Positions 897-24,885 of a DNA stretch of 25,810 nt are shown here, in pieces. Below the pieces are notes generated by a model. That model saw nothing but the letters and a program-made list of their open reading frames with translations. It made no database searches and was not told where the DNA came from. The stretch is from a virus. Lineage: Duplodnaviria; Heunggongvirae; Uroviricota; Caudoviricetes. The position numbers and the translations under genes were made by a program. The DNA lies in the IMG/VR virus record IMGVR_UViG_2548876964_000006, positions 1 to 25,810 of that record; one strand, written 5' to 3'. Each line of letters starts with the position of its first letter. Positions within the stretch are counted from its first letter, which is position 1.

Positions 897-1403
897 TTGA
901 GTATTTTCAATAAACACGCACACCAGGAACGTCCGTATATCGTCATAGTCGATATTGATGGGACGATATCAGAGGCAACGGAAGACAGGCTGCATTTGCT
1001 TCCACCACCTGGCAAAGGTGCATTAACAGAGCACTGGAACGAGTTTAACCTTGCCTGTGACACTGATGCTCCCATCACTCCAGTTATTGATATGGTGCGC
1101 CAGTTATTTAACGTTTACACGGTCTGGTTTGTAACCGGGCGCTGTGAGATAGCCAGGGATAAAACACGAGCCTGGTTGCGTAAGCACGTAACAAACGGGG
1201 CTGAGCCTTTGCTATCTATGCGTCCTGCCACCGATGACAGAAATGACGGCCCAGCAAAGATTGCTCTCCTTAAGAAAATTGGTCTAAGTAAAATCGCGTT
1301 CGCGCTGGAAGATAAGATTGAAGTGGCGCGTGTTTTCAGGAGTCACGGCGTACTTACGTTAATGGTCAGGGAGTATGAAAACGCGCTTCTCCATCAACAG
1401 TAA
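897..1403 (+). CDS. HAD-superfamily phosphatase-like protein (DxDGT motif)
   Basis: TTG start 4 nt after AGGAGG. VIVDIDGTI near the N-terminus is HAD motif I; a downstream VTGR and a K/DD pair are consistent with motifs II-IV. Confidence 0.55.
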   Translation: MSIFNKHAHQERPYIVIVDIDGTISEATEDRLHLLPPPGKGALTEHWNEFNLACDTDAPITPVIDMVRQLFNVYTVWFVTGRCEIARDKTRAWLRKHVTNGAEPLLSMRPATDDRNDGPAKIALLKKIGLSKIAFALEDKIEVARVFRSHGVLTLMVREYENALLHQQ

Positions 1404-1433
1404 TTGCTCTAATAAATCTTGATTTTTAAAACA
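1403..1433 (+). promoter_or_regulatory. P1 C1-operator-like site (ATTGCTCTAATAAATCT, 16/17 to consensus) overlapping a -35 TTGCTC / 17-bp spacer / -10 TAAAAC promoter
   Basis: Same 30-bp architecture recurs at 14714 and 24820. The operator consensus is recalled from the P1 literature, not searched. Confidence 0.5.
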
Positions 1434-1501
1434 GAGAAAGTGAAAATAAAAACATGCCGCAAGGCGCGGCATGTATCCAATCAATCACAGGAGCTGAAAA
1501 T

Positions 1502-1588
1502 ATGAACACGGCATTCAAAATCATTATGGCCGCGATCTATTTCTGGCTGTTCTCTATCACTTTTGGCGGCATCGTCGCGCATGGGTAA
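1502..1588 (+). CDS. small hydrophobic peptide (28 aa, MNTAFKIIMAAIYFWLFSITFGGIVAHG)
   Basis: ATG preceded by CAGGAG; one predicted transmembrane helix; too short for the ORF track. Confidence 0.3.
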   Translation: MNTAFKIIMAAIYFWLFSITFGGIVAHG

Positions 1589-1597
1589 GGGGGATGC

Positions 1598-2323
1598 ATG
1601 AAAGGCGAAGTGAAAGAGCGCGGCATGATTTTCAACGATGAGATGGTCCGAGCCATCCTCGAAGGAAGGAAAACGCAGACGCGGCGGATAATGAAAAATC
1701 AGCCTGCGGAAGTTGGTCCAGAAGCACCAGTGATGATTAGAAAAATTGGTGCAGGTTTTCAGTGGTACGGGGCTGATGGTGTAAGCAGTGTTTTCAATTG
1801 CCCCTTTGGTATCGTCGGCGATCGAATTTGGGTTCGTGAAACATGGGCGATATTAGGCAATGAAGATGGTTGCAGTGTGGACTGGAACGACAACCTTTGT
1901 CGTGGCGATGAGAAGAACGCAGCAAGGATTTATCGGGCCAGTTGTGAGCAAAAGCCTGGTGATTACGGTTTATGGTCGATACCCGATGATGCCGACTGGA
2001 AACCTCACACTGTGAATGAAAAGTTTGATGGTGGGTGGCGTCCATCAATTCACATGCCGCGATGGGCATCACGCATCCTGTTGGAAATTACCAACGTTCG
2101 CGTTGAGCGGTTGAACGATATCAGCGAATGCGATGCAAGGGATGAGGGCGTTTCGCCTGCTGGAAGTTTGCTTCCTGATCACCCGGGAACATTCCTTACT
2201 CCCAAGGGGGATTTCGCAATGGCCAAGGTTGCGTTCCAGCGCCTGTGGGAATCCATCTACGGCGAAGAAAGCTGGAGTGCTAATCCCTGGGTTTGGGTAA
2301 TCGAGTTTGAGCGTATTCAGTAG
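1598..2323 (+). CDS. hypothetical protein with ASCH-like N-terminal motif (MVRAILEGRKTQTRR)
   Basis: ATG 5 nt after AAGGGGG. The GxKxxxxR-type motif is typical of ASCH/PUA-like phage proteins. Alternative start at ATG 1625. Confidence 0.55.
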   Translation: MKGEVKERGMIFNDEMVRAILEGRKTQTRRIMKNQPAEVGPEAPVMIRKIGAGFQWYGADGVSSVFNCPFGIVGDRIWVRETWAILGNEDGCSVDWNDNLCRGDEKNAARIYRASCEQKPGDYGLWSIPDDADWKPHTVNEKFDGGWRPSIHMPRWASRILLEITNVRVERLNDISECDARDEGVSPAGSLLPDHPGTFLTPKGDFAMAKVAFQRLWESIYGEESWSANPWVWVIEFERIQ

Positions 2324-2332
2324 GGCGAGCGT

Positions 2333-2554
2333 ATGCAATCAGTTATTTGTGAGGAAGTCGGCCTGAATAAAGCATCCCCAGCAGAGTTAAGAGCAAGTCT
2401 CGAAATGGCGCATAGCCTTGCTCAAATTGGTGTCAGGTTTGTACCAATTCCAGTTGAAACAGATGAAGAATTTCACAGGTTAGCGGCATCGGCAGCACAA
2501 AAGCTGGAAATCATGGCAGCGAAAGTAGAGAAAGCTGAAGGAGCGACAAAATGA
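2333..2554 (+). CDS. hypothetical protein
   Basis: 73-aa ORF packed tightly in the operon; its stop overlaps the next start (ATGA). Confidence 0.45.
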   Translation: MQSVICEEVGLNKASPAELRASLEMAHSLAQIGVRFVPIPVETDEEFHRLAASAAQKLEIMAAKVEKAEGATK

Positions 2555-22922: not shown

Positions 22923-23446
22923 CGGTCAATGGGGCCATCGACTGGCTGAACCGCGCTTCTTATTTTTTCACACTTGATCCATCGCCAGACAATATGCGGC
23001 GCGTTGGTCGTGGCCGCCGTCGCCGTGGTGTTTGTTATTGCATGGCACTACCCGATGTTAAAGAACGTGAAGTCAGAGGCGGCGTTCTGTGCTTCCGTCG
23101 TGTGGCTGAACGTGGCATGGAGCCAAAAAATACGAATTCTCCCGAGTGGTGGGCGTGGCGCTGGTCCGCACATTTCGGACTTTGCGAAGATGAGAATGAA
23201 ATTGCCAGCGGCAATAGTGCATATGGTGCTCTGAACCTGGCTTTCCATATCGGATTCAAACATGTCGCCCTGGTGGGCGTTGACGCTACACAAGAACCAC
23301 GCGTTCACTCCGGCGGCACGCCAAAAAATCTAAGTCACCTGCCTTTGTTATTCCAGTCTGCGCGTGAACGGATTGACGTTGTTTCATGCGGGAAAATGGG
23401 AGGTATTCCGCAGATGACTCTTAAAGAATGGCTGAAGAATACATGA
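22820..23446 (+). CDS. GSGPS-motif Rossmann-like protein, paralog B
   Basis: [10 protein letters not shown]...IIAVN and [24 protein letters not shown]; overlaps paralog A by 103 bp in another frame. Confidence 0.5.
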
Positions 23447-24120
23447 TGGCACCAACAATTTATCACCGTATCGACGGTACCAAATACAGGAATATCTGGG
23501 TTGTTGGTGATCTGCATGGTTGCTACACCAGACTGATGTCCGAACTCCATCGTGTGGATTTTGACCCGGCGCAGGATTTACTGATATCGGTCGGCGACCT
23601 TATCGATCGCGGTACTGAAAATGTCGAATGTCTGGAACTATTGCAGATGCCCTGGTTCAGGGCAGTGATGGGGAACCATGAGCGGCTGATGATTGATGCG
23701 TTAAGTCCTGATGGCAACGTGAATAACTGGCTAATGAATGGCGGACAATGGTTCTTCATGCTGGACACTGATCAGGAAATATTAGCCAGGGCGCTGGTGG
23801 AGCTGGTAAAGCGTCTGCCCTATATCATTGAGTTGAACACCGGGCAAGAAACTATCGTTATAGCCCATGCCGACTATCCGGATAATGAATACCAATTCGG
23901 TAAGGAGGTGCCGCTTTTCAACGTTGTCTGGGCGCGCGAGCGTATCAGTGATTCGATGGATGATATTGGTGGCGAAATTTCGGGCGCAGATCGTTTTATC
24001 TTTGGTCACACTCCGGTGAAAAGCCCGAAGACATTCTGGAATCAGCAGTATATCGACACTGGTGCCGTATTTTGCGGAAACCTGACATTGATGAAAGTGA
24101 AAGGTGATGGTGCAGCATGA
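23443..24120 (+). CDS. serine/threonine protein phosphatase, lambda-PPase/calcineurin-like family
   Basis: GDLHG, GDLIDRG and GNHE metallophosphoesterase motifs; start overlaps the upstream stop. P1 encodes a comparable Ppp. Confidence 0.75.
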
Positions 24121-24818
24121 AGATTGCTTTAGTTCTTCGCTCTGGTGGTGACTATAACGCTTCCGATGTGCAGTGGCTGGTTAATCAACTGCCAAAAGGC
24201 TATGAAATTATTTGCCTGACAGACCTGAAGCGTTTACATGTACCTGGCGTCAAAGTTGTCCCATTGATCAACCAGTGGCAAAAGTGCCGTGGCTGGTGGG
24301 CGAAAATCGAGTTGTTCCGACCGGATATAACCGATGATCTGTTCTATCTGGATTTGGACACGGTTATTGCCGGTGATATACGCCCAATCCTTGAGAATCC
24401 ACCAACCTGCTTCACCATGCTTAGGGATTTTTACCATCCACAATATCGTGGTAGCGGTGCCCTGTGGATACCAAATAGTGTAAAAGCACATATCTGGAGT
24501 TCATTCTGGCAAGATCCGGAAGGTTGGATTGCTCGTTGTGTCACTACTGAGTGCTGGGGTGATCAGGGATTCTTACGGAAGGTTATGGGCGATGATACAC
24601 CAGCATTTCAGGATCTGTATCCAGGATGGTTTGTAAGTTACAAGGCCGATGTTGTGGAACCTGGTTCAAAATATGCGAGCGCGCGTTACTCCAGGGGGAA
24701 TGGGGCATTACCAAAGGACTGCCGAATAATCTTTTTCCACGGCAAACCGCGGCCTCGCGAAGTGTCAGAGGATTGGCTTCCCCTCATTAGCTCGTTTTTT
24801 GAGCGAGAATCAGAATAA
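24117..24818 (+). CDS. GT-A fold glycosyltransferase-like protein (GT8-like)
   Basis: [13 protein letters not shown] (DxD), GDQGFL and [10 protein letters not shown] resemble the GT8 DxD / DQxxLN / HxxGxxKPW motifs. Confidence 0.5.
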
Positions 24819-24819
24819 T

Positions 24820-24849
24820 ATTGCTCTAATAATTCCATATTTTTAAAAC
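24820..24849 (+). promoter_or_regulatory. C1-operator-like site (ATTGCTCTAATAATTCC, 14/17) with -35 TTGCTC and -10 TAAAAC
   Basis: Third copy of the 30-bp promoter architecture; the predicted start site falls in the loop of the adjacent hairpin. Confidence 0.45.
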
Positions 24850-24874
24850 GTGATGTACACTCATCACGTTTTTT
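24845..24874. terminator. bidirectional terminator hairpin flanked by inverted operator-like copies
   Basis: AAAACGTGATG / CATCACGTTTT stem with A/T runs on both sides. Confidence 0.55.
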
Positions 24875-24885
24875 ATTAGAGCAAT
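24869..24885 (-). promoter_or_regulatory. inverted C1-operator-like site (ATTGCTCTAATAAAAAA on the minus strand, 14/17)
   Basis: Forms a symmetric pair with the site at 24820 around the hairpin. Confidence 0.4.

Follow-up and report, generated by a model that had tools for sequence, protein, structure and literature searches.

Operator sites in the window

The stretch analysed here, a 25,810-nt caudoviricete sequence (IMG/VR record IMGVR_UViG_2548876964_000006, positions 1 to 25,810; hereafter the window), carries pacB, the late-promoter activator gene lpa, minus-strand tail genes, a c4-icd-ant antirepressor cassette and an accessory gene block. Between them lie copies of an asymmetric 17-bp motif that are very probably operators of C1, the master repressor of phage P1, in a P1-like plasmid prophage. 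By megablast the window is a Punavirus (P1 family) sequence, matching P1, P7, RCS47 and SJ46 at 96-98% identity over 69-78% of its length. Among complete Escherichia coli genomes, the near-identical matches are the plasmids p08_4347-1 and p08_4455-1 of E. coli O111:H8; p08_4347-1 aligns with window positions 25-25810 at ∼ 99.9% identity (nine mismatches). On these matches we take the window to be DNA of a P1-like plasmid prophage from Shiga-toxin E. coli (STEC). The literature credits P1 C1 with 22 dispersed operators of consensus ATTGCTCTAATAAATTT and with control of lpa and repL (PMC8546580). The predicted operators of the window, with their P1 counterparts and weight-matrix scores, are as follows.

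1403-1419, plus strand: OpmgT (former Op88); P1 84293-84309, 17/17 identical; 26.0 bits
11411-11427, plus strand: Olpa (former Op94); P1 89904-89920, 17/17 identical; 18.7 bits
14714-14730, plus strand: operator heading an extra immI-type cassette, counterpart of P1 Oc4/Op51; TTTGCTCTAATAAATTG; 22.9 bits
21196-21212, minus strand: O26 (former Op82); P1 78528-78544, 17/17 identical; 23.9 bits
22103-22119, minus strand: orthologue of P1 Oppp (former Op83); TATGTACTAATTAATTT versus P1 CATGCACTAATTAATTT; 14.1 bits, chance level on score alone
24820-24836, plus strand: OpmgRa (former Op86a); P1 82152-82168, 17/17 identical; 23.8 bits
24869-24885, minus strand: OpmgRb (former Op86b); P1 82201-82217, 17/17 identical; 21.3 bits

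An earlier note, made from the sequence alone, had listed six of these (all except 22103) as matching the C1 consensus at 14-16 of 17 positions. Scanning both strands of the window for ATTGCTCTAATAAATTT with up to three mismatches returned all six at the positions and on the strands given there, with one mismatch at 1403(+), two at 14714(+) and 21196(-), and three at 11411(+), 24820(+) and 24869(-). A seventh match, also with three mismatches, lies at 13926(-). The total of seven compares with an expectation of 0.06 and was not attained in any of 100 dinucleotide-preserving shuffles. The annotation of the P1 record NC_005856 (Lobocka et al., 2004) served as the operator reference. Five of the six sites are identical to annotated P1 operators over all 17 bases, and they are syntenic, with the same gene context and 128-137 of 137 flanking positions identical. 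The identity proposed in the earlier note is borne out here base for base, as these five are 'phage repressor C1' binding sites in that record.

To guard against circularity, a weight matrix was derived only from P1 operators lacking an orthologue in the window, eight in number (Oref, Oc4, OrepL, Orlf, Oc1a, Oc1c, Oc1d and Oc1e), with coordinates taken from the P1 record. The six sites score 18.7-26.0 bits against this independent matrix; a first-order Markov simulation predicts 0.05 sites above 18 bits per window. All six are intergenic or lie on a stop codon, immediately upstream of operons. Three further sites, 5258(-), 13926(-) and 22103(-), score ∼ 14 bits, where 0.43 are expected per window by chance. 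It could be argued that the matches are a chance AT-rich word in AT-rich intergenic DNA, and the three low scorers do lie at chance level. For the six sites this is refuted by the two enrichments and by the five curated P1 operators among them, and we attach practically no probability to it.

The low scorers differ in what else can be said of them. The site at 22103(-), absent from the earlier list, is the Op83 orthologue; two substitutions, one of which changes the conserved core from GCAC to GTAC, have probably weakened it as an operator. The match at 5258-5274(-), ACGGCTCTAATTCATTT, includes the operator core GCTCTAAT; it is embedded in an accessory-block coding sequence of 70 aa. It is kept in only one other P1-like phage, Ro157c2YLVW, where it is invariant despite differing nearby bases. 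A first matrix that contained the weak half-site Oc1b raised it to 18.2 bits; Oc1b was then dropped, and the score without it is 14.2 bits, at chance level. This site may be a weak operator. The match at 13926(-) was rejected: it lies inside pacB, scores at chance level and is unannotated in P1, and RCS47, 673R5 and JL22 do not conserve it.

OpmgT starts where pap ends, sharing its final base, and the first accessory-block gene follows 178 nt downstream. Gene 26 and pmgL diverge, and O26 lies between them. OpmgRa lies upstream of pmgR and pmgS, and OpmgRb is its inverted partner across a hairpin. The hairpin (24837-24868) has a perfect 11-bp stem with T and A runs on either side, and the whole 66-bp region is palindromic. 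It resembles a bidirectional terminator between pmgQ and pmgR; the generic promoter/terminator scan did not call it as a terminator.

The regulon layout follows that of P1 (NC_005856), with PpmgR, P2pmgT/P1pmgT and Plpa as the same predicted or known promoters. It differs from P1 in the altered Op83 orthologue and in the cargo downstream of Op88, which is mostly replaced. This region is P1-like up to window position 2293; 2294-7699 and 8047-9037 are non-P1 and are separated by a short P1-like stretch (7700-8046). The non-P1 cargo comprises ead/Ea22-like genes (one of them frameshifted) and DUF551 and DUF1382 genes, in place of the P1 pmgU-V and upf genes. Genes of these three kinds are typical of lambdoid early-left regions. 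Just downstream of Op88 the minus strand has a strong terminator-like hairpin (1452-1474; 10-bp stem followed by TTTTATTTTC) with no nearby minus-strand gene needing it; read on the plus strand, it would lie in the 5' leader of the accessory operon.

Promoters and the T-rich tract

The clearest link between an operator and a promoter is found at lpa, for which the following features were identified.

11425-11452, plus strand: Plpa (P94) promoter, TTGCTA-16-TATTAT with upstream TG; called by the promoter scan and annotated in P1 as the sigma-70 promoter Plpa
11498-11950, plus strand: lpa, late-promoter activator; Pfam PF25716 BPP1_LPA, E = 3e-57; RefSeq 'late promoter-activating protein'

Operator and promoter overlap here, the 3' end of Olpa covering part of the -35 element of Plpa. 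Across the five operator regions scanned, Plpa is the only called promoter that matches the P1 annotation; one unannotated minus-strand call falls in the same region. Through lpa, C1 is connected to all late operons.

The earlier note had described a fixed promoter architecture at 1403, 14714 and 24820, in which the motif itself supplies the -35 element. The hexamers and their spacing are present: TTGCTC, a 17-nt spacer and TAAAAC at 1404-1432 and 24821-24849, and TTGCTC, a 17-nt spacer and TAACTA at 14715-14743. The arrangement coincides with PpmgR and P2pmgT as predicted in the P1 record, which also offers an alternative predicted pmgT promoter, P1pmgT, with TTGATT as its -35. However, the generic sigma-70 scan calls none of the three TTGCTC promoters. 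At 14714, a layout homologous to P51a (-35 TTGTGT at 14728, TGnTACATT at 14748) seems at least as plausible as TTGCTC-17-TAACTA. In any of these versions, C1 bound to the 17-mer would overlap the -35 element. An inner, P51b-like candidate promoter, TTGAGG-17-TATCAG (14776-14804), is operator-free.

At 21196 the promoters are weak predictions, none of them called by the generic scan. In the P1 annotation Op82 overlaps predicted plus-strand pmgL promoters, and LP26, a late promoter, drives gene 26. As LP26 is the main promoter of the minus-strand tail operon, C1 probably reaches these genes only by way of lpa. The earlier note had placed the accessory block, lpa, the antirepressor cassette, the minus-strand operon and the genes downstream under a single P1-type repressor. 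The operators of such a regulon are indeed there, but, given LP26, genes 26 to 5 may not be regulated by C1 directly.

A T-rich tract had also been singled out as conserved across the three TTGCTC sites, and it is found there, within 1420-1432, 14731-14743 and 24837-24849. It is not special to them. When 21 paralogous operator sites from P1 and the plasmid were aligned with their flanks, T was the commonest base at each position from +20 to +25 (13-18 of the 21 sites per position, 0.7-1.1 bit), compared with ∼ 0.1 bit at other flank positions. By this alignment, most C1 operators continue on their 3' side into such a tract, which does not mark three promoters in particular. This could mean that the operator itself extends further, or that operator and promoter form one shared module; since the sites may share ancestry, the tract proves no function.

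A different account of the sites is that a promoter module (TTGCTC as -35, T-rich spacer, weak -10) has been copied round the genome and that C1 binding is incidental or absent at some copies. A block of ∼ 30 nt comprising operator, T-tract and TAA does recur at Op88, Op86a, Op99e, Op51, Op53 and 14714, and the P1 record predicts promoters with TTGCTC as -35. However, the conserved 17-mer (up to 1.9 bit per position across 15 positions) far exceeds the length of a -35 hexamer, and copies occur in the non-transcribed orientation (24869(-), 22103(-)) and as palindromic pairs (plasmid positions 4778/4794), as suits a protein-binding site and not a promoter. None of the proposed -10 hexamers ends in the invariant T or is called by the promoter scan, and where P1 has the identical site, its record lists it as bound by C1. 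We consider a mere promoter module very improbable and retain the interpretation of the sites as C1 operators.

The operator-headed cassette at 14714

The sixth site has no P1 orthologue at its position. It heads a cassette with these features.

14805-14882, plus strand: leader RNA, isrK-like, ending in a terminator hairpin (14861-14877); Rfam RF01394, 60.8 bits
14907-14994, plus strand: C4 antisense RNA, full length; Rfam RF01695, 75.9 bits (gathering score 45), E = 1.9e-13
15049-15270, plus strand: icd-like gene; 80% identical to P1 Icd; RefSeq Icd-like
15267-16301, plus strand: ant, antirepressor; 80% identical to P1 Ant1; Pfam ANT/KilAC domain, E = 8e-31

Homology to P1 stops at window position 14713, and an insertion after pacB begins with operator base 14714. 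By comparison with P1, the left boundary of this insertion falls exactly at the operator, which also includes the stop codon of pacB. Aligned with P1 immI, it falls in register with Oc4/Op51. The parts of the cassette also follow in the same order as in the immI region of P1 and P7 (Op51/Oc4, P51a/P51b, c4, icd, ant1/2): C1 operator, two promoter-like sites, targets a1 and b1, C4 RNA, targets a2 and b2 over the icd ribosome-binding site, and icd joined to ant through ATGA. The icd stop codon overlaps the ant start codon in this ATGA (15267-15270), and icd is, by this arrangement, predicted to be translationally coupled to the Ant/KilAC antirepressor, as in an immI-type operon.

The leader RNA holds the upstream C4 targets a1 (TTGGCCT, 14831) and b1 (GTCTAAGG, 14847). 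The C4 RNA presents the loops b' (CCTTGGACG, 14951) and a' (AGGCCAA, 14966), and the icd ribosome-binding site AAGGAGG (15034) lies inside target b2 (15030). Loop a' of the window (AGGCCAA) can pair with both a1 (TTGGCCT) and a2 (TTGGTCT), and loop b' (CCTTGGACG) with b2 (CGTCTAAGG). The corresponding pairs are AGTCTCAA with TTGAGAC in RCS47, and CCTTGATTG with CAATCAAGG in the chromosomal copy of ACN001. Loops and targets (a'/a1/a2, b'/b2) thus co-vary between cassette variants, and these compensatory changes imply several distinct C4 immunity specificities. The recognition sequences of the window also differ from those of P1 and P7, which makes a separate immunity specificity probable. Unlike immI of P1 and P7, the cassette lies after pacB and not beside sim and kilA, its leader matches Rfam isrK (a small RNA of Salmonella Gifsy-1), and two more cassettes of its kind are present on the matching plasmid.

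That ant is inserted between pacB and c1 in pTZ20_1P and RCS47 is on record (PMC6906374), in a paper that makes no mention of the operator (0 occurrences). The window shares the insertion point and an identical operator and promoter region with RCS47, pTZ20_1P, JL22 and vB_EcoM-673R5. The operator and the first promoter region are invariant in RCS47, 673R5 and JL22 despite a diverged C4 RNA downstream, and the RCS47/JL22 variant differs from the window in a' and in the target sequences. Unlike the RCS47-type insertion, the window has an ant gene whose 3' half derives from another cassette (see below). The leader/C4 RNA module is also found in chromosomal P4-like elements, there without a C1 operator. 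In the non-P1 chromosomal copy of the module, homology starts only at the -10 of the inner promoter, the 14714-type operator is missing, and no operator-like site was found within 5 kb. This pattern of presence and absence is as expected if the 17-mer is the P1-specific connection of the cassette to C1.

Origin of the window and proposed control by C1

A tblastn search of the window with P1 C1 gave nothing better than E = 0.76. The earlier note had likewise seen no c1 in the window and had placed the repressor elsewhere on the replicon. It also proposed scanning the full replicon, and its interpretation depended on a C1-family repressor being there. The gene is present on p08_4347-1 at 32033-32884(-), just outside the interval covered by the window, and encodes a protein identical to P1 C1.100 in 281 of 283 residues (two differ). 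The whole replicon holds 21 consensus matches with up to three mismatches, compared with ∼ 0.6 expected. In the native plasmid order, the pacB-proximal cassette is followed directly by c1 (convergent, 1.7 kb past pacB), coi and the operators Oc1a-e. Three immI-type c4-icd-ant cassettes are carried by p08_4347-1: one between dbn and gene 5 (5111-6363), one between pacB and c1 (30335-32000), and the canonical one, whose ant is a disrupted pseudogene. The dbn-proximal cassette is headed by a palindromic, bivalent operator pair (plasmid 4778/4794; 4778-4810). In the sister plasmid p08_4455-1, the dbn-proximal icd is interrupted by IS1203.

The gene order of the window is permuted relative to both plasmids. 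Window positions 25-15525 correspond to p08_4347-1 15646-31146 (two mismatches), and window positions 15076-25810 to p08_4347-1 5138-15872 (seven mismatches). The two blocks overlap by 450 bp in the window (15076-15525), a repeat that consists of icd and the 5' end of ant. It is common to two antirepressor cassettes of the plasmid, where its copies lie 25,559 bp apart. At the ends of the window there is a terminal redundancy of 227 nt (25-251 is an exact copy of 25584-25810), and positions 1-24 are the reverse complement of 25308-25331. Judged from these coordinates, the window represents the segment from one repeat to the other, joined into a circle, with overlapping termini and a short inverted piece at its start. 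Since this permuted circle is joined within the 450-bp repeat, c1 is absent from it. The ant gene of the window has a 5' part common to both plasmid cassettes and a 3' part from the dbn-proximal copy; closure through the repeat accounts for this hybrid.

Most simply, the window is probably a mis-closed assembly contig; a genuine excised circle or duplication junction is possible. Origin by true tandem duplication would leave unexplained why 1-24 is an inverted snippet instead of a copy of 25560-25583. The leftmost 43 nt of the window, a unique sequence, had no match in the viral and genome contig collections.

The origin of the window bears on how its operators are to be read. Were it a genuine 25.6-kb circle, or the junction of a tandem duplication, without c1, the sites could be relics, free of repressor control. 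The joining of pacB to gene 5 through the hybrid cassette, the terminal redundancy, and the lack of c1, plasmid replicon and partition genes are in keeping with this. However, the join falls within the 450-bp repeat, where short-read assemblers close false circles, and the inverted first 24 nt are a typical contig-end artefact. The complete plasmids have the same sequence in normal P1 order with c1 present, and C1 from a parent plasmid would repress a circle in trans anyway. We regard the relic explanation as having only a very small probability and continue to interpret the sites as operators under the control of C1.

Several points weigh against that interpretation: the failure of the generic scan to call the three TTGCTC promoters, the 'predicted' status of the 1403/24820-type promoters in the P1 record, the lost core base in the Op83 orthologue, and the lack of c1 in the window itself, the operators of which would be unoccupied if it were a real free circle. 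On the other side stand demonstrated features, namely identity with P1 operators, enrichment, placement, c1 on the matching replicon, the C4 RNA and the covariation of its targets.

From these we infer C1 binding and repression in the window's own element, as well as the promoter used at each site. C1 bound to each asymmetric 17-bp site would block RNA polymerase at overlapping or adjoining promoters. In a lysogen, C1 at Op88 would silence the accessory operon in the pmgT position. At Op94 it would shut off lpa; with no Lpa, the late operons as a whole, pacAB and the minus-strand tail genes among them, would stay silent too. C1 at Op86a/b would silence pmgR and pmgS, and at Op82 the divergent gene 26/pmgL region. 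The 14714 site would gate the outer promoter of the second c4-icd-ant module, the role that Op51 has in P1 immI. The operator-free inner promoter (TTGAGG-17-TATCAG) probably sustains synthesis of C4 RNA, which would pair with a2 and b2 at the icd ribosome-binding site and block translation of icd and ant.

Much of this is familiar. Knowledge of the P1 C1 regulon and its 22 scattered asymmetric operators dates from the late 1980s, and the reading given in the earlier note is essentially right and ordinary. A distant analogy is offered by the 'stoperators' of mycobacteriophages L5 and L1, where one repressor (gp71) also serves many dispersed asymmetric sites; protein and motif are unrelated to C1. 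Some points are mildly new: the pacB-proximal cassette has an operator of the Op51 type, the plasmid stacks three cassettes, the T-tract is a general feature, and the window is permuted and should be flagged as a probably mis-closed contig.

Two further ideas are, taken jointly, unlikely in our view: that the functional C1 operator is longer than the 17-mer, and that the three stacked, C1-operator-headed c4-icd-ant modules, differing in C4 specificity, form an expanded immunity/anti-immunity system in P1-like plasmids of STEC. If the operator is extended, the T-tract at +20 to +25 could be contacted by C1 or the co-repressor Lxc/Bof, or could set the shape of the DNA. Recombination between the stacked modules could excise or duplicate the 25.6-kb pac-lpa-tail segment that corresponds to the window. 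For the biology of these elements, the sequences indicate that the C1 regulon is intact in P1-like plasmids of STEC O111:H8, and that the C1 switch also takes in the variable cargo downstream of Op88 and one additional antirepressor cassette.

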